NCBI RefSeq assembly: GCF_964213995.1 | Contig: NC_135812.1 | Location: 62,496,001 to 62,560,000, forward strand | Source of the DNA: Mustelus asterias | Taxonomy: Eukaryota | Direction: 5' to 3' | DNA length: 64,000 nucleotides | Shown: positions 9,400 through 59,028 of the stretch, piece by piece | Layout: each line of letters starts with the position of its first letter | How positions within the stretch are numbered: position 1 is the stretch's first letter | The notes under the pieces: model-generated | Database searches by the model: none | Told to the model about the DNA's origin: nothing | What the model saw: the letters and a program-made list of their open reading frames with translations, nothing else | Made by a program: the position numbers and the translations under genes

Positions 9400-9705
9400 A
9401 TAGAATCCCTACAGTGCAGAAGGAGGCCATTCGGCCCATCAAGCCTGCACCGACAATAATCCCACCCTTGCCCTAGTGCTGTAACCCCATGTATTTACCC
9501 TGCTAATCCCCCTGACACTAAGGGACAATTTAGCATGGCCAATCAACCTAACCTGCGCAGCTTTGGAATGTGGGAGGAAACCAAAGCATCCGGAGGAAAC
9601 CCACGCAGACACAGGGAGAATGAAACACCACAAAGTCACCTGAGGCGGGAATTGAAACTGGGTCCCTGGTGTTGTAAGGCAGCAGTGCTAACCACTGTGC
9701 ACCAT
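9400..9705 (-). mobile_element. HE1/V-SINE
   Basis: Reverse-complement match to the 39530 copy from head to GGGATTCTA tail. Confidence 0.9.
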
Positions 9706-10131: not shown

Positions 10132-11290
10132 TGAACATATGAGTGAGGAGCAGGAGAAGGCCCCTCTAGGCTGCTCCACCATTCAATAAGGTCATGGCTG
10201 ATCTCATAGAATCCCTACAGTGCAAATTGAGGCCATTTGGCCCATCGAGCCTGCACTGACAACAATCCTACCCAGGCTCTATCCCCATAACCCCACGTAT
10301 TTACCTTGCTAGTCACCTTAACAAAATTTAGCATGACCAATCAACCTTCCCCGCACATCTTTGGAGTGAGGGAGGAAACCGGAGCACCTGGAGGAAACCC
10401 ACGCAAACACGAGGAGAACGTGCAGACTCCGCACAGTGACCCAAGGTTGGAATTGAACCCGGGTCCCTGGTGTGAGGCAACAGTGCCACCGTGCTTCTCA
10501 TTTTAACCTCAACTTCACATTCCCGCCTACCCCCAATAACCGTTCACTCCCTTTCTTATCAAGAATCTATCGACTTCTCCCTTAAAGATATTCAAAGACT
10601 GCTTCAACCATTTTTTGAGGAGGAAAATTCTGAAGTCTCACAATCCTCAGAGAATTTTATCTCCTCATCTCTGTCTTAAATGGGCAACACTTATTTTTAA
10701 ACAGTGGCACCTAGTTCTAGATTCTCCCACAAGAGGAAACATCAAGTCCCCTCAGGATTACATATTTCAATCAAGTCACTTCTTACTCTTCAAAACAGTG
10801 GATACAAGTCTAGCCTGTCCAGCCTTTCCTCAGAAGTCAACCCACCCATTTCAGGTATCAGTCTGATAAACCTCTGAATTGCAGCCAACGCATTTACATC
10901 TTTCCTTAAATAAGGAGACCAAAACTGTGCACAGTACTCCAGGTGTGTTGTCACCATGCTCTATATAAATGAACCATACCTCTTGTCTTCAATTCTCTTT
11001 GCAATAAATAATAACATTTAATTACTTGCTTCACCTGCATTCTAACCTTTTGAAATTCATGCACAAGGACACCCAGATCCCTCTGCATTTTAGAGCTCTG
11101 CAATCTCTCATTATTTAGATAATATGCTTTTTTTATTCCTTCTGCCAAACTTCACATTTTCCACATTATACTCCATTTGCCAGATCTTTGCCCACTCACC
11201 TATTATCCCTTTATAGCTTCCTTATGTCCTCTTCAGAACTTACTTTCCTACCCTTGTGTCATCAGCAAATTTAGCATTGGTCTCTTCATC
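10132..11290 (-). mobile_element. Degenerate CR1 3' portion interrupted by an HE1 SINE
   Basis: GAACATATGA..GGAGCAGGAG tail. ORF fragment QRDLGVLVHEFQKVRMQVKQVIK. Confidence 0.85.
10207..10495 (-). mobile_element. HE1/V-SINE nested in the CR1 tail
   Basis: Same consensus as the other copies. TCTCAT occurs at both edges (possible TSD). Confidence 0.85.
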
Positions 11291-11522: not shown

Positions 11523-12853
11523 AGAACATAAGAAATAGGAGCAGGAGTAGGCCATCTAGCCCCTCGAGCCTGTCCCGCCATTCAATAAGATCATGGCTGA
11601 TCTGAAGTGGATCAGTTCCACTTACCCGCCTGATCCCCATAACCCCTAATTCCCTTACCGATCAGGAATCCATCTATCCGTGATTTAAACATATTCAACG
11701 AGGTAGCCTCCACCACTTCAGTGGGCAGAGAATTACAGAGATTCACCACCCTCTGAGAGAAGAAGTTCCTCCTCAACTCTGTCCTAAACCGACCCCCCTT
11801 TATTTTGAGGCTGTGCCCTCTAGTTCTAGTTTCCTTTCTAAGTGGAAAGAATCTCTCCACTTCTACCCTATCCAGCCCCTTCATTATCTTATAGGTCTCT
11901 ATAAGATCCCCCCTCAGCGTTCTAAATTCCAATGAGTACAAACCCAATCTGCTCAGTCTCTCCTCATAATCAACACCCCTCATCTCTGGTATCAATCTGG
12001 TGAACCTTCTCTGCACTCCCTCCAAGGCCAATATATCCTTCCACAAATAAGGGGACCAATACTGCACACAGTATTCCAGCTGCGGCCTCACCAATGCCCT
12101 GTACAGATGCAGCAAGACATCTCTGCTTTTATATTCTATCCCCCTTGCAATATAGGCCAAGATCCCATTTGCCTTCTTGATCACCTGTTGCACCTGCAGA
12201 CTGGGTTTTTGTGTCTCATGCACAAGGACCCCCAGGTCCCTCTGCACAGTAGCATGTTGTAATTTTTTTCCATTTAGATAATAATCCAATTTGCTATTAT
12301 TTACTCCAAAGTGAATAACCTCACATTTGTTAACGTTATACTCCATCTGCCAGATCCTCGCCCACTCACTCAGCCTGTCCAAATCTCTCTGCAGACCTTC
12401 TATGCCCTCCACACGATTCACTTTTCCACTTATCTTTGTGTTGTCTGCAAACTTTGTTACCCTTAACTCAGTCCCCTCCTCCAGATCGTCTATATAAATG
12501 GTAAATAGTTGAGGCCCCAGTACCGATCCCTGCGGCACGCCACTAGTTACCATCCGCCAACCAGAAAAGCACCCATTTATTCCGACTCTCTGCTTCCTGT
12601 CAGATAGCCAATCCCCAATCCACGCTAACACCCTACCCCCAACTCTGTGTGACCCAATCTTCTTCAGCAACCTTTTGTGAGGCACCTTATCAAATGCCTT
12701 TTGGAAATCCAAAAACACCACATCCACCGGTTCCCCTCCATCAACCGCACTAGTCACATCTTCATAAAAATCCAACAAGTTCGTCAAGCACGACTTTCCC
12801 CTCATGAATCCATGCTGCGTCTGCTTAATCGAACCATTCTTATCCAGATGGCT
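11523..12853 (-). mobile_element. Young 5'-truncated CR1 LINE with uninterrupted RT C-terminal ORF
   Basis: ORF 11612..12967: QHGFMRGKSCLTNL, DFQKAFDKVPH, GVPQGSVLGP, FADNTK (normally FADD), LVRPQLEYCVQYW. Tail TTCTTATGTTCT. Confidence 0.95.
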
Positions 12854-13124
12854 GGAGCAGAATCGCCAGGTGATGGTGTTGCTCAGGCATCTACTGCTTT
12901 TTCCCTCCTGGTTGGTAGTGGCTATGGGTTTGGAAGGTTTATATAAATTGTAAAATATTCTGTCCAATCTTTAGAATTTATCTACCAGTCTACCTCAGCC
13001 AGAATAGGATCAAACCCATTACCCTGGGTCTCTGTTAGTGTTAATCTGATCCACACACTGGCTGCCTAACCAACTGAGCTAACCAGAAACACCTCTCCCG
13101 CGCTACCCCTCACCGTCCACCTAT

Positions 13125-16820: not shown

Positions 16821-17533
16821 ATTTAACTTAACAGTTGAGGTGAACCTTCATATAACGTGAAGATAAATCAGACAGCCGGACCACAGAACAGCAAAGGGTC
16901 ATAAAATATTTAATATAAATCGACTGAACAAGCTGGCAAAGTAGAATGTATTAGGGTAGTCTAAAACGCAGTTGAACAGAAAGCTGGAGGATCTAAGAGT
17001 ACTTAAAGAAATGTGCTCAATGACCTTTTGTCATCCTGACCTTTTTCTTGTGTTTTTTTAATTAGTCACATCAATGTCATCAATGTGTGCATCTCCACTG
17101 ATAGCCCTGCTTGCAATGTGACGGGCTTCTTTCTCCCATTACAGCAGTATACCAAATGGAGGAAACATTAATTCACTTCAAATTACACAACCAGTTGGGC
17201 AACCTACTCCTACGTGACAGTCTCCCTGATAATCCTGTTTCTCTCACCAACATATTTCTTTTTGTTGCCAACAGCCCTTAGGAATGTGATCTGGATGTTT
17301 AATTGGTGCTCCCAATGCTGTGGAACATGAGCCCTGCTTGGTAACATTAAACCCCATGCTCGCAACTCGAAAACAAGTCAATTTGTTCAAAGGTAAACGA
17401 TCACATCAAATAAAAGCTCACCAGCCAAAAAAATCTAGTCAGATATGGTAAGCAATTTGGTTAAATCCTTTAATATTAATAATCAGCCGAAAAGAAGCAG
17501 ACCCGAGTTAGTTCCTATACCTGTATTAGTCAT

Positions 17534-17693
17534 AGTAAGAAATCTCACAACACCAGGTTAAAGTCCAACAGGTTTCACCTGATGAAGAAGCAGCGCCTCG
17601 AAAGCTCGTGATTCCAAATTAACCTGTTTTAACCTGGTGTTGTGAGGTTTCTTATTGTGCTCACCCCAGTCCAATGCCGACATCTCCACATCA
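17534..17693 (+). mobile_element. Short Penelope-like element end with inverted 5' arm and 12 bp TSD
   Basis: TSD TGTATTAGTCAT at 17522-17533 and 17694-17705. Arm 17534-17574 is the reverse complement of the downstream AACCTG..CTTA segment. Confidence 0.85.
17576..17610 (+). ncRNA. Minimal hammerhead ribozyme motif (PLE-associated, degenerate stem II)
   Basis: CAC-CTGATGA-AGAAGCAGCGCCTC-GAAA-GC-TC-GTG. Confidence 0.65.
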
Positions 17694-17882
17694 TGTATTA
17701 GTCATCCCACCCCAGCAACACATTGGGAATATCCTTTATTAAAAACCCAAAAGGGATAGACAAGGCAATCATTGCCTTACTACAGCATTAGCTAACCAAT
17801 AAGTGCCATATAGTTAATCTCCATTACTTTTCAAATGTACCAGGGTTGCTTTTAATTCAACACCTCAATTTTAGAAATGAGG

Positions 17883-18450: not shown

Positions 18451-19173
18451 AACAAATACCAATGAGGTTTTTTTTGTGGAATCCAATCAAATATCTGCTG
18501 AAAATCCTGATGTAGCACTGCCAACATTTTCAGGTGTTAAGCTACATCAGTCACATCTTTAAGTGGACCTCTTATCCCTTATGATCTGGGGTGCACCTTT
18601 TGCCACCTAGCAGAAAATAAAGTGATAGCATAGCCTGGAATTGTAAAATTGACACTTGCTGTAGGCATCAGCTACTTAAACACTGCACGTGCTGCATGGC
18701 TGTTCTCTTTTCACAGAAGATGAGGCACAACTCAGCAACCGAGCAAGTTTCTGGTTTCTTTTATGTGAAAAGAATTAGGAATTCTCATTGTAATCTTCTT
18801 CATTTGATGCTTGTGTTCTGAAAAAAACAAGAATATGGCCTACCTGATGTCAGATTCACTTTCAATCCAGGTATTGCTGAACTGGCTGCTGGGTTCACTT
18901 TCCCATCTTGTGAATGTTTGTCAGAGTGAAGTGGGTGTATTGAATCTCCATTTTAAAGCAGATTAGCATATTCAAAAATAATCACACTTCATTTTGCAAC
19001 TGGTAAGAATACTGAGCATTGAATACGCTCAGAAAATCCAAAACAAAATCTTTCAGGCATTAGGACCTTGAGTGCCTCAGGTTATTTTTGGTCCTATTTG
19101 CTAATTTTCCCCTTTCATCTTGTTCGGCTGCTGAGAGTTTTTTGGCAGTACAGCATTTTTGGCAGTACAGTAG

Positions 19174-19632
19174 AGTCACGGGCATTCGGCCTCTGATATT
19201 CGGGTAAGCATTCTCCAAGGCAGCCTTCACGACACACGACGGCGCAGAGTAGAAACTGATAGCCAAGTTCCGCACACACGAGGACGGCCTCAACTGGGAT
19301 ATTGGGTTCATGTCACACTATTTGTAACCCCCACAGCCTGCCTGGAACTGCAGAGTTTCACTGGCTGTCTTGTCTGGAGACAATACACATCTTTTTAGCC
19401 TGTCTTGATGCTCTCTCCACTCACGTTGTTTGTATCTTAAAGACTTGATTAGTTGTAAGTATTCGCATTCCAACCATTATTCATGTAAATTGAGTCTGTG
19501 TCTTTATATGCCCTGTTTGTGAACAGAATTCCCACTCACCTGAAGAAGGGGCTTGGAGCTCCGAAAGCTTGTGTGGCTTTTGCTACCAAATAAACCTGTT
19601 GGACTTTAACCTGGTGTTGTTAAACTTCTTAC
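19174..19632 (+). mobile_element. Penelope-like element 3' end (GIY-YIG C-terminus, 3'UTR, hammerhead), lacking the terminal tail
   Basis: Encodes GHSASDIRVSILQG and KLIAKFRTHEDGLNWDIGFMSHYL*. Nearly identical to 45049-45499. Confidence 0.9.
19532..19576 (+). ncRNA. Minimal hammerhead ribozyme motif, intact core
   Basis: CCACTCAC-CTGAAGA-A-GGGGCT-TGG-AGCTCC-GAAA-GC-TT-GTGTGG. Confidence 0.75.
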
Positions 19633-19949
19633 GGAGTTTTTTGTGCCAGTTATTAATTCATTTTTTGATCCCAGTTCCCTTTTCTGGCACCTTTGGATTT
19701 ACTAAAAAGAATCTTCACTGCTGTCACCTTTACAAGAGAATCTGCAAAGCAATGCAGGGAGTTTCAATGCTCATAGACACTTGATGCCTCTCTGTCATCT
19801 CTTGCAGTTTTGCATCTGCTGAAAGGTAGCTTTTTCATGTTTTAGCACAGGGTCTTGCTAGGGACTCGTATCGTCAAAGAAAACTTTCTTTTAAGCTCAA
19901 TCGCCCCTTCAACCACCTGCTACTGAAACAATTCTCCATACTTTTTGTT

Positions 19950-25038: not shown

Positions 25039-25330
25039 GCAGTGGTTAGCACTGCTGCCTCACAGCGCCAGGAACCCGGTTCGATTCCCGGCTTGGGCCA
25101 CTGTCTGTACGGAGTCCGCATGGTCGCCCAGTGTCTGCGTGGGTTTCTTCCGGGTGCTCCGGTTTCCTCCCACTGTCCGAAAGACGTGCTGGTTAGACGC
25201 ATTGGCCATGCTAAATTCTCCCTCAATGTACCCAAACAGGTGCCAGAGTGTGGCAACTAGGGGATTTACACAGTAACTTCATTGCAGTGTTAATGAAACC
25301 CTACTTATGACACTAATAAATAAACTTTAA
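25039..25330 (+). mobile_element. V-SINE variant with alternative tail
   Basis: GCAGTGGTTAGCACTGCTGCCTCACAGCGCCAGG..GGTTCGATTCCCGG head. Tail as at 2355. Confidence 0.85.
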
Positions 25331-27229: not shown

Positions 27230-27574
27230 ATAGAATCCCTACAGTACAGAAAGAGGCCATCATACCCTTCGAGTCTGCACCAACTCGCCGAAAGAGCTTC
27301 CCACCTAGGCCCTCCCCTCCGCCTTATTCCCGTAAACCCGCACATTTTTCACGGCTAATCCACCTAACCTACACATCTTTGGGCACTAAGGGATAAATTT
27401 AGCATGGCCAGTTCACCTAACCTGCACATCTTTGGACTGTCAGAAGAAACTGGAGCACCCGAAGGAAATTCACGCAGACATGGGGAGAATGTGCAAACTC
27501 CACACAGTCACTCCAGGCTAGAACTGAACCGGAGTCCCTGGTGCTGTAAGATAGCAGTGCTAACCACTGTGCCA
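27230..27574 (-). mobile_element. HE1/V-SINE
   Basis: Full head-to-tail reverse-complement match to the other copies. Confidence 0.85.
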
Positions 27575-39179: not shown

Positions 39180-40860
39180 TTCTCTGAAAGAATAACATGT
39201 GCTGTGGATAAAGGGGAGCCTGTAGACATGCTGTACTCATTTCCAGAAAGCATTCAGTAAGGTATCACATCAAAGGTTATTGTGAAAAATAAAAGCTCAT
39301 GGTGTGTGTGCGTGCGCACGTGCATGTATGTATGTACGTGGGGGTGGGGGAAGGGGTAACATATTAGCCTGGATGGTAGCAAGGAAACAGGTAATGCATA
39401 AATTGCTTTTTTCTGATTGGCAGGACGTGACGACTGGAGTCCTGCAGGGGTTTGTGTTGGACCTCAACTTTTTACAATTTACGTCAATGACTTATATGAA
39501 ATATTATCTTCATAGTCCATAAGTGTACAGGGCAGCACGGTAGCACAGTGGTTAGCACTGCTGCTTCACAGCTCCAGGGTCCCGAGTTCGATTCCCGGCT
39601 CGGGTCACTGTCTGTGTGGAGTTTGCACATTCTCCTCGTGTCTGCGTGGGTTTCCTCCGGGTGCTCCGGTTTCCTCCCACAGTCCAAAGATGTGCGGGTT
39701 AGGTTGATTGGCAAGGTTAAAAAAAAAATGCCCCTTAGAGTCCAGGGATGTGTAGGTTAGAGGGATTAGCGGGTAAAATATGTGGGGGTAGGGCCTGGGT
39801 GGGATTGTGGTCGGTGCAGACTCGATGGGCCGAATGGCCTCCTTCTGCACTGTAGGGTTTCTATGATTCTATGATTTCTATGAAGGGAGTGAAAGCATGG
39901 TAGCTAAATTTGCAGAATACACATGGATAGGAAGATTGTGAAGATGACATAAGGAGTTTGCAGATGGCTACAGATACGTTAAGTGAGTGGGCAAAAACAT
40001 GGTAGAGTATAATGAGGGAAAATATGAAGTTGTTCACTTTGGTAGGAAGAGTAAAAAAAGCAGAGTATTACTTAAACGGAGAATGACTGCAAAATTTGGA
40101 GATGCAGAGGGATCAAAGTGTTCAAGTGCATGAGTCACAAAAGGTTAGTATGCAAGTACAGCAAGTAATTAAGGAGGCTAATGAAATGCTATCCTTCATT
40201 ATGAAAAGATTTGAATATAAAATTAAATGTTATGCCTCAGTTATAAAAGGCATTGGTGAGCCCACATCTTTAATATCGTGTGCAATTTTGATCTCCTTAT
40301 TTAAGGAAGGATATAAATCGGTTGGAGATGGTTCAGAAGTTTACTAGGTTGATACCTGGAATGAGTGGGTTGTCTTGAGTATAGGTTAGACAAATGCAGC
40401 TTGTTCCCACTGGAGTTTAGAAGAGCGATGGGTGACTTGATTGAAGTGTTTTAGATTTTGACAAGGTGGATGTGGAAAGGATGCTCCCCTTGCAGGGGAG
40501 TCCAGAACTAGGGGGTACCCACCCTTGACCTTGATACCTTCCCCAATACCTCACCACCCTCAACACTGACTTCTGGACTACAACTCCTTTTCCCACTCCC
40601 CTGACAAATTAGACAGGAAGGTGGGTTGAAGTGTGTCTACTTCAAAATTAAAGGTAATCCTTTAAGGACAGATGAGAAATCTTTTCTCAGTGGATTGTGT
40701 GAATTTGGAACTCTTGCCTCAGAAGGTGGTGGAGGCAGGGTGATTGAATATTTTTAAGGCAGTGGTAGATAGATTTTTGTTAGGCAAGCAGGTCAAAAGG
40801 TTATCGGGGTTAGACAGAAATGTGGAATTTGAAACAGATCAGCCATGATCTTAATGAATG
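39180..40860 (+). mobile_element. Old CR1 RT/3' region, interrupted by a SINE and a younger CR1; tail resumes at 43913-43980
   Basis: GATAAAGGGGAGCCTGTAGAC (DKGEPVD) and QVQQVIKEANEML. AGCCATGATCTTAATGAATG continues as AATGGTGAAGCAGACTCGAGGGGCCAAATGGCCTAC at 43913. Confidence 0.85.
39530..39880 (+). mobile_element. Full-length, well-preserved HE1/V-SINE
   Basis: GGGCAGCACGGTAGCACAGTGGTTAGCAC (A box), GAGTTCGATTCC (B box), tail (TTCTATGA)n. Confidence 0.93.
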
Positions 40861-43800
40861 AGAGGGGCACCAATATTCTGGGAGGGAACCAGAGGGGCAC
40901 GAATATCCTGGGAGGGAAATTTGATACGGCTCTTCAGGGGGGTTTAAACTAATTTGTCAGGGGAGTGGGAAAAGGAGTTGTAGTCCAGAAGTCAGTGTTG
41001 AGGGTGGTGAGGTATTGGGGAAGGTATCAAGGTCAAGGGTGGGTACCAGTAGACAGGAAGGTGGGTTGAAGTGTGTCTACTTCAATGCAAGGAGCATCCG
41101 GAACAAAGTAGATGAACTTGGGGCGTGGATTGGTACTTGGGACTACGATGTTGTGGCCATTACAGAGACGTGGGTAGAACAAGGACAGGAATGGTTGTTG
41201 GACGTTCCGGGGTATAGATGTTTCAGTAAGTGTAGGGAAGCTGGTAAAAGAGGTGGAGGAGTGGCATTGTTAATCAAGGATAGTCTAACGGCTGCGGAAA
41301 GGCACTTCGAGGGGGATCTGCACACTGAGGTAATATGGGCTGAAGTTAGAAATAGGAAAGGAGCGGTCACATTGTTAGGAGTTTACTATAGGCCCCCAAA
41401 TAGTAATAGAGATGTGGAGGAAGAAATTGCTAAGAAGATTATGGATATGTGTGGGGGTCTCAGGGTAGTTGTCATGGGGGACTTGAACTTTCCAAATATT
41501 GATTGGAACCTTTGTAGGTCAAATAGTTCGGATGGGGCAGTTTTTGTGCAGTGTGTGCAGGAGGGTTTCCTGACACAATATGTGGATAGGCCGACAAGAG
41601 GTGAGGCCACATTGGATTTGGTACTGGGAAATGAACCGGGGCAAGTGTTAGATTTGGTTGTGGGAGAGCACTTTGGAGATAGTGACCACAATTCGGTGTC
41701 TTTTGTTATTGCAATGGAGAGGGATAGGGCCGTACGGCAGGGCAAGGTTTACAATTGGGGGAGAGGTAATTATGATGCGATTAAGCAAGAATTAGGGGGC
41801 ATAAGATGGGAACAGAAACTGTCAGGGAAAGGCACTAATGAAAAGTGGAACTTTTTCAAGGAACAAATACTGGGTGTCCTTGATAGGTATGTCCCTGTCA
41901 GGCAGGGAGGAAATGGCCGAGTGAGGGAACCATGGTTCACCAAAGAGGTGGAATGTCTTGTGAAAAAGGAAAAGGGAAGCTTATGTAGGGATGAGGAAAC
42001 AAGGTTCAGATGGCTCGATTGAGGGTTACAAGTTAGCAAGGAATGAGCTGAAAAAGGGGCTTAGGAGAGCTAGGAGGGGACCTGAGAAGTCCTTGGCGGG
42101 TCGGATCAAGGAAAACCCCAAGGCTTTTTAATCTTGTGTGAGGAATAAAAGAATGACCAGGGTGAGGTTAGGGCCGGTCAAGGACAGTAGTGGGAACTTG
42201 TGTATGGAGTCAGTAGAGATAGGCGAGGTGATGAATGAATACTTTTCTTCAGTGTTCACCAAGGAGAGGGGCCATGTTTTTGAGGAAGAGAAGGTGTTAC
42301 AGGCTAAGAGGCTGGAGGAAATAGTTGTTCGGAGGGAGGATGTCCTGGCAGTTTTGAATAAACTGAAGGTCGATAAGTCCCCTGGGCCTGATGAAATATA
42401 TCCTAGGATTCTTTGGGAGGCAAGGGATGAGATTGCAGAGCCTTTGGCTTTGATCTTTGGGTCCTCACTGTCCACGGGGATGGTGCCAGAGGACTGGAGA
42501 GTGGCGAATGTTGTTCCTCTATTTAAGAAAGGGAACAGAAATGACCCTGGTAATTATAGGCCGGTTAGTCTTACTTCGGTGGTTGGTAAATTGATGGAAA
42601 AGGTCCTTAGGGATGGGATTTACGACCATTTAGAAAGATGCGGATTAATCCGGGATAGTCAGCACGGATTCGTGAAGAGCAAGTCGTGCTTCACAAATTT
42701 GATAGAATTTTTTGAGGAGGTAACTAAGTGTGTTGATGAAGGTAGGGCAGTTGATGTCATATACATGGATTTTAGTAAGGTGTTTGATAAGGTCCCCCAT
42801 GGTCGGCTTATGATGAAAGTAAGGAGGTGTGGGATAGAGGGAAAGTTGGCAGATTGGATAGGTAACTGGCTATCTGATCGAAGACAGAGGGTGGTGTTGG
42901 ATGGAAAATTTTCGGACTGGAGGCAGGTTGCTAGCAGAGTGCCACAGGGATCAGTGCTTGGTCCTCTGCTCTTTGTGATTTTTATTAATGACTTAGAGGA
43001 GGGGGCTGAAGGGTGGATCAGTAAATTTGCTGATGACACCAAGATTGGTGGAGTAGAGGATGAGGTGGAGGGCTGTTGTAGGCTGCAAAGAGACATAGAT
43101 AGGATGCAAAGCTGGGCTGAAAAATGGCAAATGGAGTTTAACCCTGATAAATGTGAGGTGATTCATTTTGGTAGGACTAATTTAAATGTGGATTACAGGG
43201 TCAAAGGTAGGGATCTGAAGACTGTAGAGGAACAGAGAGATCTTGGGGTCCATATCCACAGATCTCTAAAGGTTGCCACTCAGCTGTGAAGAAGGCCTAT
43301 AGTGTGTTAGCTTTTATTAACAGGGGGTTGGAGTTTAAGAGCCGTGGGATTATGCTGCAACTGTACAGGACCTTGGTGAGACCACATTTGGAATATTGTG
43401 TGCAGTTCTGGTCACCTCATTGTAAGAAGGATGTGGAAGCACTGGAAAGAGTGCAAAGGAGATTTACCAGGATGCTGCCTGGTTTGGAGGGTAGGTCTTA
43501 TGAGGAAAGGTTGAGGGAACTAGGGCTGTTCTCTCTGGAGCGGAGGAGGCTGAGGGGAGACTTAATAGAGGTTTATAAAATGATGAAGGGGATAGATAGA
43601 GTGAACGTTCAAAGACTATTTCCTCGGGTGGATGGAGCTATTGCAGTTATAGCTATAGAGCATGAACCCTATAACTACAACGATAGGGTTCATGGTGGGA
43701 GATATAGGAAGGATATCAGAGGTAGGTTCTTTACGCAGAAAGTGGTTGGGGTGTGGAATGGACTGCCTGCAGTGATAGTGGAGTCAGACACTTTAGGAAC

Positions 43801-43912
43801 ATTTAAGCGGTTATTGGATAGGCACATGGAGCACACCAGGATGATCTTGGTTTCAGATAAAGCTCGGCACAACATCGTGGGCCGAAGGGCCTGTTCTGTG
43901 CTGTACTGTTCT
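40861..43912 (+). mobile_element. Young CR1 LINE with nearly complete ORF2 (APE endonuclease + RT) split by a few frameshifts
   Basis: ORFs 41015..42022 (YFNARSIRNK, ITETW, MGDLNFP, SDHN), 42138..43289 (NYRPVSLTS, DFSKVFDKVPH, PQGSVLGP, FADDTK) and 43286..44020. Confidence 0.97.
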
Positions 43913-44581
43913 AATGGTGAAGCAGACTCGAGGGGCCAAATGGCCTACTTCGGCTCCTATTTCATATCTTCGTATGTATGTTCAAATGTAATGTCAATGA
44001 ATGGCTGCTGTTACACTTGATCGTTTCTTGCAAGATGGACAAAGATGGTATTTGTCCCCTTGGTGCTGCTTTTTCTTTTCTATGTGGGCAATCTGAAAGC
44101 CCTCCGAGGCAGAGGAGGGCCATTCCTGTTGCAAGATGATGTTTGAGCGGTTTGCTCATCTCTGCTTTATGTTGTTGATGGTTGATAGACTGCTGCCAGG
44201 TTCAGCATTCCTTGTGCTTGTGGCATGTTGACAGGAAGTCGCAGCGTGTGCACAGTGGTTGACGCGTCTACCAGCTGTACCATCATCGTAGTTATAGGTA
44301 ACGGCTTCTCAGACTGATTGTTCTCCAGTGTCACTTCCACCAGAGGTGTCATGGTAATCTTGTGGGGAGTAGGTCGGTCTGACCATTGGGGATATCTTTT
44401 GTGTTAATCTAACCATTGGGGAATGATAATAAATGTGATCCATAAAGAGAGATCAAAGGCAAAAATCAGGGTCTAAGTACTCTTCAGTGTTTGAGCACTG
44501 TTTGTTCTGGCTGACTTTCGACACAGTGAGAGGTTTAACAACACCAGGTTAAAGTCCAACAGGTTTATTTGGTAGCAAAAG

Positions 44582-44626
44582 CCACACAAGCTTTCGGAGC
44601 TCTAAGCCCCTTCTTCAGGTGAGTGG
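44582..44626 (-). ncRNA. Minimal hammerhead ribozyme motif, intact core, sense to the host pre-mRNA
   Basis: Minus strand CCACTCAC-CTGAAGA-A-GGGGCT-TAG-AGCTCC-GAAA-GC-TT-GTGTGG. Confidence 0.75.
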
Positions 44627-45396
44627 GAATTCTGTTCACAAACAGGGCATATAAAGACACAGACTCAATTTACATGAATAATGGTTGGAATGCGAATACT
44701 TACAGCTGATCAAGTCTTTAAGATACAAACAACGTGAGTAGACAGAGCATCAAGACAGGCTAAAAAGATGTGTATTGTCTCCAGACAAGACAGCCAGTGA
44801 AACTCTGCAGGTCCCCAGACAGGCTGTGGGGGTTACAAATAGTGTGACATGAACCCAATATCCCGGTTGAGGCCGTCCTCGTGTGTGCGGAACTTGGCTA
44901 TCAGTTTCTGCTCAGCGACTCTGCGCCGTCGTGTGTTGTGAAGGCCGCCTTGGAGAACGCTTACCCGAATATCAGAAGCCGAATGCCCGTGACCACTGAA
45001 GTGCTCCCCAACAGGAAGAGAACAGTCTTGCCTGGTGATTGTCGAGCAGCATTCGGCCTCTGATATTTGGGTAAGCGTTCTCCAAGGCGTCCTTCACGGC
45101 ACAGAGTCGCTGAGCAGAAACTGATTGCCAAGTTCCGCACACACGAGGACAGCCTCAACCAGGATATTGGGTTCATGTCACACTATTTGTAACCCCCACA
45201 GCCTGCCTGGACCTGCAGAGTTTCACTGGCTGTCTTGTCTGGAGACAATACACATCTTTTTAGCCTGTCTTGATGCTCTCTCCACTCACGTTGTTTGTAT
45301 CTTAAAGACTTGATTAGTTGTAAGTATTCGCATTCCAACCATTATTCATGTAAATTGAGTCTGTGTCTTTACATGCCCTGTTTGTGAACAGAATTC

Positions 45397-45441
45397 CCAC
45401 TCACCTGAAAGAGGGGCTTGGAGCTCCGAAAGCTTGTGTGG
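45397..45441 (+). ncRNA. Hammerhead motif with mutated core (CTGAAAG), probably inactive
   Basis: CCACTCAC-CTGAAAG-AGGGGCTTGGAGCTCC-GAAA-GCTT-GTGTGG. Confidence 0.55.
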
Positions 45442-46700
45442 CTTTTGCTACCAAATAAACCTGTTGGACTTTAACCTGGTGTTGTTAAACTTCTTACTGT
45501 GTTTACCCCAGTCCAACGCCGGCATCTCCACATCATCACTTTCGACAGCCATCTGAAGGAGATCCAGCGCTCGACAGGCATTCCTGCTTAGGAGAGAGAA
45601 AGACTGGTTACAGATGACGTACATCAGCTCTCTTGCTGTCATACCTCAGTGGTTTGAGGGTCATGTCAATGACTGGGAGTCAGACTCCCCCTGCCCTGTA
45701 AAGTGGAGTGTCTGATGTTTGAATCCAGGGGCCTTGGAACAGCGGCTCCTTCTCTGACAGGAATGTAACACTGGCACCTGAATCTAATTTAAAATTTGTT
45801 AGAAGACCATTTACTAGAGTGTGTCAGCTCTCCAAAAGGAAGTACTGCACTCTTTGATCTCACCCAAGAAGCATGACTGTCTCTCTTCTGGGTTTTCAGT
45901 CTCATCCTCGTGGATGACATTTGGGGGATCTATATGGTGCTGGGGTTTGACTTGCAGTTTACCAAAGTGTTTCTGTTTGTTGCAATGGGAGCATTGGGCT
46001 GTCCTCACAGGACATTGCTTTTCTGTGAGAGTGTTTTGTATCATGATACTGGCAAGGTTGCTCTGCTGGTTAGTTCAGGAATTGTTTCGCCCTGACTTGA
46101 ATTGTCCCTGCATTTCTGTGACATGATAAGATGGACTGAGGTTTGGTTTCTGCCCCATGTTGTATTTTCTCCCCTTAGGGTGGTCCTGTGTTGTTTACGT
46201 AGCTCAGACAGTCTAACTAGCCCTTACGACTTGCCTTGGCCAAGGTGATCTTTAGCTTGTAGGAGGTCAGAGAGGGAATCGTTTGCAATACCCATCAAGA
46301 TTCTGTCGAGGATAAGCTTAGACTTTAAAATCTCCGTATTCACACTCCTCTGCCACCCTGAGATCATATGATAGAATCAACAAGCTCTCCAGGCAGTTGG
46401 ACTCTTACTAAATTTAGCTTTTTCCAATAATTTGTTTAAACATTGATGTTGAAGGACTTCAAAACTTTCTCAGATTTGGCAGATTACTCATTAATATCTT
46501 GTCGTGTGATGATTTTGCCTGTAAATGGCCCAAATGAATAACTAGTGTGTTTACTTGCTGTTTCAGATTTTTTATTTAGACTGAAGCAATGCTGTGTTCT
46601 TCCAAAGACTCGAACTCTGTGACTGGTTCAGGCCTTGGGTAAGTTCCAACAGAGCCGAAAGTGTGGAATTGTGATCCATGTTGAAAATTTTAATATTGTG

Positions 46701-47689
46701 TGTGACGCTACTTTGCCTTTAAGAAAGGTATTTTAAGCATGTTCTCAGCAGTTATACAGTAAGAAGTTTAACAACACCAGGTTAAAGTCCAACAGGTTTA
46801 TTTGGTAGCAAAAGCCACACTTTTGCTACCAAATAAACCTGTTGGACTTTAACCTGGTGTTGTTAAACTTCTTACTGTGTTTACCCCAGTCCAAAGCCGG
46901 CATCTCCACATCATGCTCAGCAGTTATAAGCAGCCCTGTTTTTCTTTATTGGGGTACTGAGTTGTCTGAGCCAGTGACCTCTTATTGTTGAAAAGCCATA
47001 TAATGGGCCTTTTGTTTATTTTTAATCTGGGCCTAATGCAATGTCCTGGAGTTCTATGACCCTTTTGAATTGTCTGGTTTGCAACTGATTGACAGGTCAT
47101 GGTCAGGTGGCTCCTACCTAAGGAAATCCAAGAGTTACTTTCAGAAGCTGTTAGGACTTCAGACTTAAAGTAGTGTGTTTGTCTCTCCCCCGGTATTGGA
47201 AATTTAGCTCTTGGTGACTCCCTAGCTAGTAGAGGAAAGGAGTGCCTCTGTCTCTCGAAGAGTGCTGAAATTCCAGGGTCAGAAGGCCTCAGTATTTCAA
47301 CTGAACATCCAAAGTGGGAAATCACAGCTGGGGTTGCAAAGCTGCCAAATCCAGCATCACATAAGCATACTGATTTTCTGCGCTAAACCTAGAATGGCGG
47401 TGTGTTGTAAGGGTTTGTTTGGTTGGAACAGTACATTTAGCTTTAAGGTATATACAATATCATGATTGTTTCTTTTCTTGTTTGTAATCGGTATAAGTTA
47501 TTGATGATTTTTCTTATATGTTAACTGTACTCTTAAATAAACCTTGTTTGATGAAAGCTCCCTAGTGGGTCACTTGAGTCATACCTGGAGTGAAACATCT
47601 TATGCTTACCTGTGCCAAATTTCAAAGTGCAAAACTTATGGTCTAGGCTGACTTCATAAAAAACCTTGGAATTTCTCACCTATATAACA
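46701..47689 (+). mobile_element. Solo LTR with 4 bp TSD
   Basis: TGTGAC...ATAACA termini. TGTG at 46697-46700 and 47690-47693. AATAAA at ~47536. Confidence 0.7.
46757..46915 (+). mobile_element. Miniature foldback Penelope-like insertion (59 bp perfect hairpin plus tail) with 13 bp TSD
   Basis: TSD CTCAGCAGTTATA at 46744-46756 and 46916-46928. Stem 46756-46814 pairs with 46820-46878. Confidence 0.92.
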
Positions 47690-47982: not shown

Positions 47983-49220
47983 AAGAATGAACAAAGAACA
48001 GTGGAGCACAGGAACAGGCCCTTCGGCCCATCAAGTCTGTGCCGACACAGATGCCTCTCCAATCTACTATTTTCCTGCCTCTATGTGGTCCATATCTCTA
48101 TATTCCCTGCCTATTCATGTATACATCCAGATGCCCCTTGAACATTGTTATAGAATCTGCTTCCACCACCGTATCTGGCAGTGCATTCCAGGAATTCACC
48201 ACCCTCTGAGAAAAACTTGTCTCTTACATTTCTTAAACTTTCCCCTCTCACTTTCAACCTATGCCCACGAATAATTGACCCTTCGACCCTGGGAAAAAGA
48301 CTCTGACTATCCACTCTATCCAAGCCTGTCATAATCTTGCTAACCTCTATCAGGACCCCCTCATCCTCCGATGCTCCAGTGAAAACAATCCAAGTTTGTT
48401 CAACCTTTCTTCATAGTCCATATCCTCCAAACCAGACAACATTCTGGTAAAACTCTTCTGCACCCTTTCCATTGCATCAACATCCTTCCAGTAGTGTGGG
48501 GACCAGAATTGTACACAATATTCCAAATGCAGTCTAACCAAAGTCTTATACAGCTGCCACATGATTTTCCAGTTCCTATACTCAACGATCTGACTGATGA
48601 AGACCAGCATACCATACGCCTTCTTTACCACCTTGTCCACCTGAGTCGTCCCCTTCAGGGAATTGTGGATCTGCACGCCTAGATCCCTCTGTATGCTATT
48701 ATTTCTAAGGGCTCTACCATTTACTCTATACTTTCCTTCTGCAGTAGACCTTCCAAATCGCATCACCTCACATTTGTCCGGGTTAAATTCCATCTGCCAT
48801 CTTCTGGCCCAGGTCTCCAGCTGATTTAGATCCTGCTGTATCCTCTGACAATCCTCCTCACTATCCACTACTCCCCCAATTTTTGCATCATCTGCAAATT
48901 TACTAATCAGACTTTCCTCCAAATTATTTATATACAAACGAGTGATTCTTGTGGAACACTACTTGTCACAGACCTCCAAGTTAGAAAAGTACCCTTCCAC
49001 TGCTACTCTCTGCTTTCTATGTCTAACTTTCTGTATCAGCCTGCCAAGAAGAACCTTATCGAAAGCTTTACTAAAGTCCGTGTATACAACATAGAGTGCC
49101 CTGCCCTGGTCAATTTTTCTTGTCACTTCCTCAAAGAACTCAATCAAGTTTGAGAGACACGATCTCCCCTTCACAAAACCATGCTGTCTTTCGCTAATAA
49201 GCCTATTCTCTTCCAGGATG
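47983..49220 (-). mobile_element. CR1 LINE 3' half
   Basis: ORFs 48350..48937 (SKFADDAK, WQMEFNPDKCEV, LVRLHLEYCVQFW) and 48959..49267 (QHGFVKGRSCLSNL, DFSKAFDKV). Confidence 0.93.
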
Positions 49221-52342: not shown

Positions 52343-52461
52343 GGTGTGGAGATGCCAGCGTTGGACTGGGGTGGGCACAGTAAAAAGTATCACAACACCA
52401 GGTTAAAGTCCAACAGATGTATTTGGTAGCACCAGCTTTCAGAGCGCTGCCCCTTCATCAG
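52343..52461 (-). mobile_element. Short Penelope-like element end beginning at the hammerhead CUGAUGA
   Basis: Minus strand CTGATGA-AGGGGCAGCGCTCT-GAAA-GC-TG-GTG..CATCTCCACA. AGAGAACAA occurs on both sides (52334-52342, 52460-52468). Confidence 0.82.
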
Positions 52462-57960: not shown

Positions 57961-59028
57961 AGAACATAAGAACTAGGAGCAGGAATAGGCCATCTGGCCC
58001 CTCGAGCCTGCTCAGCCAATCAATAAGATCATGGCTGATCTTTTTGTGGACTCAGCTCCACTCACCCGCCTGCTCACCATAACCCTTAATTCCTTTACTG
58101 CTCAAAAATTTATCTACCCTTGCCTTAAAAACATTCAATGAGGTAGCCTCAACTGCTTCACTGGGCAGGGAATTCCACAGATTCACAACCCTTTGTGTGA
58201 AGAAGTTCCTCCTCAACTCAGTCCTAAATCTGTTTCCCCTTATTTTGAGGCTATGCCCCCAGTTCTAGTTTCACCCGTCAATGGAAACAACTTCCCTGCT
58301 TCTATCTTATCTATTCCCTTCATAATCTTATATGTTTCTATAAGGTCTCCCCTCATTCTTCTGAATTCCAATGTGTATAGCCCCAGTCTACTCAGTCTCT
58401 CCTCATAAGCCAACCCTCTCAACTCCGAAATCAACCTAGTGAATCTCCTCTGCATCCCCTCCAGTGCCAGTATATCCTTTCTCAAGTAAGGAGACCAAAA
58501 CTGTACACAGTACTCCAGGTGTGGCCTCACCAGCACCATATACAGCTGCAACATAACCTTGCTGTTTTTAAACTCCATCCCTCTAACAATAAAGGACAAA
58601 ATTCCATTTGCCTTCTTAATTACCTGCTGCACCTGCAAACCAACTCCTTGAGATTCCTGCACAAGGACACCCAGGTCCCTCTGCACAGCAGCATGCTGCA
58701 ATTTTTTACCATTTAAATTATAGTCCATTTTGCTGTTATTCCAAAATGGATGACCTCATATCTACCAACATTGTACTCCATCTGCCAGACCCTCGACCAC
58801 TCGCTTAGACTATCTATATCCCTTTGCAGACTTTCAGCGTCCTCTACACACTTTGCTCTGCCACTCATTTTAGTGTGAGCTGCGAATTTTGACACACTAC
58901 ACTTGGTCCCCAACTCCAAATCATCTATGTAAATCGTAAACAATTGCGGTCCCAACACTGATCCCTGAGGCACACCACTAGTCACTGATCACCAACCAGA
59001 AAAACACCCATTTACCCCACTCTTTGCT
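57961..59028 (-). mobile_element. Young 5'-truncated CR1 (related to the 11523 copy)
   Basis: ORFs 58240..58728 and 58713..58985 (VTSGVPQGSVLGPQLFTIYIDDL, LVRPHLEYCVQFW). Tail TTCTTATGTTCT. Confidence 0.95.

Follow-up and report, generated by a model that had tools for sequence, protein, structure and literature searches.

Minimal hammerhead ribozymes (min-HHRs) have been described in the pseudo-LTRs (pLTRs) of metazoan Penelope-like elements (PLEs), including Xena, Poseidon and Neptune PLEs of fishes, and they show no activity as monomers and little as dimers (Cervera and De la Pena 2014, PMC4209133). PLEs show inverted pLTRs with a tail of 30-40 bp at one end (PMC8557442), and target duplications of 8-10 bp are known for them (PMC3846280). 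For the PLE of the anole, the tail has been shown to be the distance between two internal reverse transcription (RT) start sites (PMC11167929). A C-X4-C-X2-C linker marks the Neptune and Nematis elements (PMC8557442). According to a 2026 preprint, the vertebrates sampled by Li et al. carry Neptune and Poseidon PLEs only, and PLE-related hammerhead repeats occur in one chondrichthyan genome (bioRxiv 10.64898/2026.07.22.740005).

The activity of these motifs has been studied in a few cases. The anole PLE motif cuts only with its protein, and a C3G/G8C double mutant partly rescues cleavage; hammerhead mutants leave insertion in vitro unchanged, and no RNA reads were reported to end at the cut (PMC11167929). 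Among Xenopus retrozyme dimers, one of nine cleaved and eight did not (bioRxiv 10.64898/2026.07.22.740005). Naiad PLEs are described as spreading without canonical hammerheads (PMC8557442).

Here we describe hammerhead motifs in the window, by which we mean the whole 64-kb stretch of DNA that was analysed. We read them as minimal type I hammerheads in 5'-truncated pLTR pieces of a PLE, likely a member of the Neptune clade and likely from a shark; a pair of hammerheads in the parent element likely cuts only with the help of protein, and the copies in the window are probably inert. We assign this reading a probability of about 0.85.

Hammerhead motifs in the window

On the plus strand at 19537-19573, the parts of a hammerhead follow one another in the order CAC, CUGAAGA, an extra A, stem II, GAAA, a G-C pair, U16.1, U17 and GUG. 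Stem II comprises 6 bp including one G.U pair and is capped by the loop UGG, stem I has 3 bp, and the G-C pair carries no loop III. The predicted cut lies at 19570|19571, after the CUU triplet. Core positions are given in hammerhead numbering. This agrees with the usage in PMC4209133. The elements of the published min-HHR consensus are all present, namely CUGANGAH, G10.1-C11.1, GAAAN, the palindrome and NUH.

We searched the window with a descriptor that combined both core boxes, a stem II of at least 4 bp, U-H after the closing pair and a stem I of at least 3 bp. With perfect stems, two sites were found (C3 at 19540 on the plus strand and at 44618 on the minus strand), and permitting one mismatch in stem II gave a third (C3 at 17579, plus strand). 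The loopless hammerhead was matched in none of 200 dinucleotide shuffles. When any helix III loop was permitted, a single match appeared in 4 of 200 shuffles under the strict setting and in 9 of 200 with one mismatch. The bare core pattern without pairing occurred 14 times in the window; shuffles averaged 6.2, and a count of 14 was reached in 1 of 100 of them. Alone, this pattern is weak and uninformative. Rfam returned no match in the window at the gathering score, and on 19150-19700 it returned no hammerhead family even at E<=10, the two matches there being chance ones (E 8-9). Plain folding z-scores for six stretches ranged from -0.97 to +0.77 and carried no signal. Judged by its anatomy, 19537-19573 is a real minimal type I hammerhead motif.

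The sequence-only reading of this DNA had named six motif copies with pairing kept, beginning at 17576, 19532, 30060, 44582, 45397 and 52430. According to BLAST and a profile built from the six, these places are copies of a single repeat family, which is present in the window as 9 pieces in 6 insertions (Table 1); a coreless head-to-head pair (46756-46914) and an inverted piece (17531-17575) had gone unlisted. Three of the six copies are complete, with the core boxes CUGANGA and GAAA and the NUH triplet intact (19532, 44582 and 17576), as they are in the distant relative L001 discussed below, but those at 45397, 52430 and 30060 are broken. The two core changes of the 45397 copy are private to it, the family core being intact in more than 99% of depth in all four of the public runs whose contigs were mapped to 45040-45560 (X1, X6, X11 and X13). 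At 45410 and 45411 the family letter accounts for 99.3% of X1, 99.9% of X6 and all of X13 (one contig) and X11; X11 is an RNA run only by guess, and its 322 contigs are no measure of transcription. The 52430 copy starts at the first core box or within it, is without stem I and carries a G at position 17, and in the 30060 copy G12 has become A. A stem I kept as CAC/GTG, as had been stated for the family, is found in four of the six copies.

The division into two subfamilies is real, as judged from the window copies and the read consensus: in three of the four runs, the loose-end consensus at 45438 is the short form, with a five-pair stem II and CUA. Stem II has 6 bp in the long subfamily, 5 bp in the short one and 4 bp in L001. 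The earlier description of stem II as differing between subfamilies with pairing kept is correct as to the difference, but that difference consists of a one-sided change (G.U versus A-U) and one pair more or less, without any compensatory two-sided change, and the 17576 copy has a single A.C mismatch within the stem. The proposed triplets CUU and CUC are both present, but the commonest triplet of the short subfamily in three runs is CUA. The palindrome AGCU does replace helix III in all six named copies, as had been noted, and also in L001, and the extra A after position 9 occurs in all copies compared.

Table 1. Features of the hammerhead-bearing repeat family and of a second repeat family in the window
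Position	Strand	Feature	Basis
17531..17694		Head-to-head insertion: inverted tail-less 17531-17575 and direct tailed 17576-17694	
17576..17610	+	Short-subfamily minimal hammerhead with complete core and CUC triplet; cut predicted after 17607	
19175..19632	+	5'-truncated PLE copy: GIY-YIG end, 3' UTR/pLTR, hammerhead	
19505..19536	+	TATA-like box at 19505 and, 29 nt on and directly before stem I, an initiator-like CA whose A is 19534	
19537..19573	+	Complete minimal type I hammerhead, long subfamily	Descriptor, per-copy pairing
19593..19630	+	Downstream motif, about 38 nt, common to both subfamilies and L001	
29976..30088	-	Short-subfamily end piece, cut off inside first core box; no clean target duplication	
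44522..45046	-	Inverted 5'-truncated PLE copy, tail-less	
44585..44621	-	Long-subfamily minimal hammerhead, complete; loop II is UAG	Descriptor, pairing
45049..45536	+	Direct 5'-truncated PLE copy with 35-nt tail	
45402..45438	+	Hammerhead with two core changes (45410, 45411, first core box)	Reads, pairing
46756..46914		Head-to-head insertion, no hammerhead core: inverted 46756-46820 and direct tailed 46820-46914	
52343..52461	-	Short-subfamily end piece, cut off at core start; 9-bp target duplication	
218-388, 2355-2530, 9514-9622, 10325-10436, 25059-25330, 27391-27510, 39566-39729	both	Second short repeat family	

Carrier element, insertion ends and conserved signals

The copy at 19175-19632 contains the end of an endonuclease whose last codons are frameshifted; the stop ends at 19327, and the hammerhead lies 213 nt past it. 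In the inverted copy at 44522-45046, an open stretch of 69 codons (44836-45042, minus strand) encodes the C-terminal part of the GIY-YIG domain. This stretch is 93% identical to a Mustelus asterias protein, 83% to one of Scyliorhinus torazame and 80% to one of Heptranchias perlo (P0010), and also 69% identical to P0016. RVT_1 was found in the homologs P0010 and P0016, and Pfam GIY-YIG scored above cut-off in the 86%-identical P0005; the window's own 75-codon endonuclease fragment had no Pfam match. When two long homologs were used as tblastn queries, the last 70 codons alone were recovered, at three places (two of them frameshifted), and no PLE reverse transcriptase was found in the 64-kb window. 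The single ORF with a reverse transcriptase and a GIY-YIG domain at its C-terminus is seen through the homologs, the window holding its last 70 codons. A C-X4-C-X2-C linker precedes the endonuclease in 9 of the 10 homologs examined, the tenth (P0027) being without a match, and a linker of the C-X2-5-C-X2-C type is also present in the translations of L001 and L002. The linker, seen like the reverse transcriptase in homologs and shared with Nematis, suggests that the carrier is likely a Neptune-clade PLE.

The proposed class, a minimal type I hammerhead in a PLE pLTR, matches the published metazoan PLE consensus and position, and was rightly described as known, hammerheads in PLE pLTRs having been published. 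The best named protein matches, in Mustelus, Scyliorhinus and Heptranchias, agree with the proposed shark family. A recently active family, which had also been proposed, finds no support here: the three long copies are 93.5-96.0% identical in pairwise comparison and all 5'-truncated, and the window contains no PLE reverse transcriptase or ORF. The family looks very abundant; in one run, 77,939 contigs fell on a 521-base stretch of the element. The endonuclease end was also matched by the shark gene models XRCC5, FAM210B, SNAPC5, USP8 and FAM204A (P0013, P0014, P0020, P0023 and P0024), which would be either annotation artefacts or cases of exonised repeat.

All nine pieces are 5'-truncated. Three insertions are head-to-head (17531-17694, 44522-45536 and 46756-46914), and in each of them the inverted arm is tail-less, the direct arm is tailed and the target duplication measures 10-13 bp. 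The pieces 44522-45046 and 45049-45536 form one such insertion, with a 10-bp duplication (44514-44523, 45538-45547); the duplication is 12 bp for 17531-17694 (17522-17533, 17694-17705) and 13 bp for 46756-46914. Clean target duplications, of 9-13 bp, flank four of the six insertions; the copy at 19175-19632, which ends near the tail-less 3' end, has none. The insertion at 46756-46914 can be drawn as a near-perfect fold-back with a 5-base loop.

The family has two 3' ends, 35 nt apart, at 66 and 101 nt past the predicted cut in long-subfamily numbering. The end at 45536 is a fixed one, since 756 contigs of run X1 depart from the element there and continue into flanks that differ from one another (agreement 0.34). 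Separately, 28 X1 contigs carry a tail-to-tail joint in which the short end meets the tail end on the opposite strand (45500/45501 to 45536); no such joint of short and tailed ends occurs among the window copies. A G follows the CAT end in two of the three window copies that end in CAT, and it also starts the weak loose-end consensus of X1 (0.34). One idea that these letters suggest is that the tail would end at the ORF start codon; with the N-terminus of P0016 as query, no shark protein was found.

Protein-led scans returned one locus in metagenomes (L001), one in prokaryote assemblies (L002) and none in viral contigs, and a scan anchored on the downstream motif returned 0 metagenome, 0 viral and 0 prokaryote-genome contigs. 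L001, a single metagenome contig, is 56-59% identical to P0001/P0010 over the C-terminal part, and 278 nt past its stop it carries a hammerhead with the same core, AGCU and CUU and a different 4-bp stem II. In the alignment with L001, the hammerhead and the next 60 nt scored above all 200 of 200 shuffles, 3 of 200 reached the score of the 40 nt before the hammerhead and 68 of 200 that of the remaining UTR, a result favoured by the choice of segments with the motif known and drawn from one relative. The downstream motif at 19593-19630 is 82% identical to L001 1024-1060, about as well kept as the ribozyme, and is likely part of a protein-binding or RT-start signal. Two-sided pair changes were seen at stem II pair 3 (L001 versus the window) and at stem I position 4 (L001 versus 17576), and the three core pairs of stem I never vary among the copies compared; covariation support for the pairing is thin. 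Among 40 of the 94 variant rows of the read table, 25 fell in the UTR, within the 209 nt that precede the motif, some of these being private changes as well, 3 in the motif and 0 in the next 47 nt. The three rows in the motif are the two private changes of the 45397 copy and the middle base of loop II.

In the window element and in L001 alike, the 5' strand of stem I includes an initiator-like CA, and a TATA-like box precedes it by 29-31 nt. Rotifer pLTRs have a comparable TATA/initiator layout (PMC3846280), and Drosophila Penelope is described as having a TATA-less internal promoter (PMC2377424). By analogy, we infer a promoter role for 19505-19536. L002, a 1304-base contig from an assembly titled bivalve gill symbiont, ends at the stop codon with no pLTR and contains a Neptune-type ORF 61% identical to P0010. 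It is probably host DNA, and its closeness to the shark elements could reflect transfer among marine animals.

Other repeats share the window. Non-LTR retrotransposon remains, which we take to be of CR1/L2 type, lie at 11612-12970 (minus), 40925-44020 (plus), 48350-48958 (minus) and 58240-58755 (minus), with Pfam matches to RVT_1 in two frames and to an endonuclease/exonuclease/phosphatase domain in one. A perfect inverted repeat of 99 bp was noted at 40514-40612/40949-41047. A second short interspersed repeat family, unrelated to the hammerhead, is abundant on both strands.

Folding, proposed cycle and alternative readings

In the folded long-subfamily monomer, stem II has a probability of 0.01-0.15, because a downstream hairpin captures GAAAGC. 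About nine extra bases past stem I, present in the long subfamily (19563-19581 and the 44582 and 45397 copies), pair back onto GAAAGC, with a probability of about 0.9 in the narrow fold; the short subfamily is without those bases. In the folding model, these bases would be a built-in off state. For the narrow 17576 stretch, stems I and II form at 0.8-0.9 and no helix III appears. The four homodimer trials put the active fold 24.6, 16.0, 20.5 and 9.0 kcal/mol higher than the best dimer fold, and the active 17576/19532 heterodimer fold lay 14.1 kcal/mol above the best. The unfavoured active dimer in these predictions fits the low or protein-dependent activity of published min-HHRs. By analogy with those systems, cleavage in the parent element would likely be assisted by dimer formation and protein, and the isolated copies in the window are probably inert. 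A cis dimer of 44582 and 45397 was considered and rejected: one core is broken, and the two motifs cannot pair in one transcript because they lie on opposite strands.

Our model of the cycle builds on what is read directly from the DNA (motif anatomy, position after the GIY-YIG stop, two 3' ends, target duplications and selective conservation in L001) and takes the tandem pLTR-ORF-pLTR layout from published PLEs, the window copies all being 5'-truncated and the metagenome, viral and prokaryote collections scanned having yielded no full-length copy. In a tandem copy, the promoter of the upstream pLTR would start the RNA just before stem I, and the full transcript would then bear one hammerhead at each end. 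The two hammerheads could exchange strands through AGCU, giving a helix III of 4 bp together with a pair of stem I helices, and the pair might cut slowly after CUH, aided by the element's own protein. The same protein would nick both target strands, and reverse transcription from either of two internal sites 35 nt apart would produce the tailed and tail-less ends. Early cDNA stops and the joining of two cDNAs would yield the short and inverted copies, with the hammerhead in the window copies being a passenger of retrotransposition.

It is possible, though in our judgement unlikely, that the hammerhead is one by descent only, which does not cut here and is kept for protein binding or because it overlaps a transcription or RT start. 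The 38-nt downstream motif is conserved alongside the hammerhead in L001, and with both kept there, the whole block may be one protein-binding signal. The predicted active fold is unfavourable, and the normal insertion in vitro of the anole PLE hammerhead mutants (PMC11167929), like the eight of nine Xenopus retrozyme dimers without cleavage (bioRxiv 10.64898/2026.07.22.740005), also points this way. Against this reading, every catalytic core base and the NUH persist in both subfamilies and in L001, whereas stem II and loop II vary freely; moreover, the anole motif does cut with protein, and C3G/G8C partly rescues it (PMC11167929). We consider it rather improbable that the short copies (about 120 bp) are a separate non-autonomous family, retrozyme- or SINE-like, with its own cut-and-circularise cycle. 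They share the two 3' ends and the target duplications of the PLE insertions, they occur singly or in inverted pairs with no tandem array in the window, and short cDNAs from the 5' repeat of the full element would yield the same pieces. A separate family would nevertheless account for the summed contig depth of X1, which is 5-10 times as great across the shared 3' part as across the long subfamily UTR (a ratio of depth, not of copy number), for the uniform short form of the loose-end consensus in three of four runs and for the three short-subfamily pieces that start 26-32 nt before the cut. Animal retrozymes are also reported to derive from PLE pLTRs and to be present in the one chondrichthyan sampled (bioRxiv 10.64898/2026.07.22.740005). 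Retrozyme membership was rejected for the window pieces, among all nine of which there are no same-strand adjacent units.

Two further readings carry little weight. The motifs with C3 at 17579 and 19540 might pair in read-through host RNA and cut it as a means of local regulation; both have complete cores on the plus strand, 1961 nt apart, and their shared AGCU and CAC/GUG would permit a mixed dimer, but its active fold lies 14 kcal/mol above the best, and the two belong to independent insertions with no PLE ORF between them. We hold this to be highly improbable. A chance likeness to a hammerhead in an unrelated repeat can be given practically no credence. The bare core pattern does turn up 6.2 times per shuffled window, repeat copies are not independent of one another and Rfam shows no match, but the full loopless motif appeared in 0 of 200 shuffles and, in two distantly related elements, sits where it is expected to, after a PLE endonuclease. 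The shuffles together with the position and alignment of L001 refute this reading. We retain the reading of PLE hammerheads whose parent pair likely cuts with protein.

If such cleavage takes place in the parent element, a trace of it could exist in the 5' truncation points, since reverse transcription begun in the 5' repeat would reach its end at the transcription start, or at the cut if the hammerhead had cleaved. Of the nine pieces, only the inverted one at 46756-46820 ends at the predicted cut: its 5' end falls on the first base past it, or on the second, given that both arms share 46820. The other five short pieces begin at -32, -29, -26, about +7 and about +13 relative to the cut, and the long pieces at -387 to -459; the 17576 piece starts at stem I, near the initiator-like site of the long subfamily. 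Six short pieces are scattered across about 50 nt and the target is two bases wide; a chance match is then expected in about 1 case in 5, so this is no evidence yet. We propose tentatively, and with low odds, that where the element's RNA had its 5' end can be read from the 5' ends of the short copies in the genome. A sharp genome-wide pile-up of 5' ends at the cut, if there is one, would be evidence that cut RNA is reverse-transcribed and that PLE hammerheads cleave in vivo, which could not be demonstrated from RNA reads in the anole study (PMC11167929). The abundance of the family and its distinct subfamilies make shark genomes suited to counting truncation points for in vivo cutting. No pile-up analysis of 5' truncations at a PLE hammerhead cut was found in the literature searched.

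Comparison with known systems

No report of a shark PLE hammerhead family was found in the largely open-access literature searched; the family may already be named in Repbase or Dfam, and it may be among the chondrichthyan retrozyme families of the 2026 preprint. Cartilaginous fish are absent from Table S1 and from the rows of Fig. S3 covered in PMC4209133. Animal non-LTR retrozymes resemble the shark family in carrying a type I hammerhead in a short PLE-related repeat (PMC7229834; bioRxiv 10.64898/2026.07.22.740005). Unlike retrozymes, which form head-to-tail tandem arrays (PMC7229834), the shark family shows no array here, and its long copies are joined to PLE coding sequence.

Among PLEs, the Neptune elements described by Craig et al. 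(2021, PMC8557442) share with it a C-terminal GIY-YIG domain after the reverse transcriptase, a C-X4-C-X2-C linker (here in close homologs), 5' truncation, an inverted truncated copy and a tail of 30-40 bp at one end. PAc, a Poseidon element from Anolis carolinensis (Frangieh et al. 2024, PMC11167929), likewise has a pLTR hammerhead and two 3' ends separated by a tail, and in PAc two internal RT starts were shown, with both target strands cut and extended. PAc belongs to another clade; its ORF starts inside the hammerhead and RT begins 111-118 nt into the ORF. Its protein-dependent cleavage was measured, and that of the shark element is a prediction. Penelope of Adineta vaga (Arkhipova et al. 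2013, PMC3846280) has the inverted pLTR, the optional tail, palindromes at inverted junctions and, within the pLTR, a TATA box with an initiator-like TCACT after it; its target duplications are 8-10 bp and its tail 31 bp, compared with 9-13 bp and 35 bp in the shark element.

The closest likeness in the motif itself is to the min-HHRs of PMC4209133, which are also of type I, with an extra base between 9 and 10.1, G10.1-C11.1, a palindromic 15.2/16.2 without loop III and a stem I of 3-4 bp. They too occur mostly as single copies in 5'-truncated ends, with some opposite-strand pairs 100-700 bp apart; the difference lies in stem II, whose sequences are family-specific. The motif is real, correctly classed and ordinary, all of its anatomy having been published (PMC4209133, PMC3846280, PMC11167929), and the finding adds a shark family to the class described in 2014.
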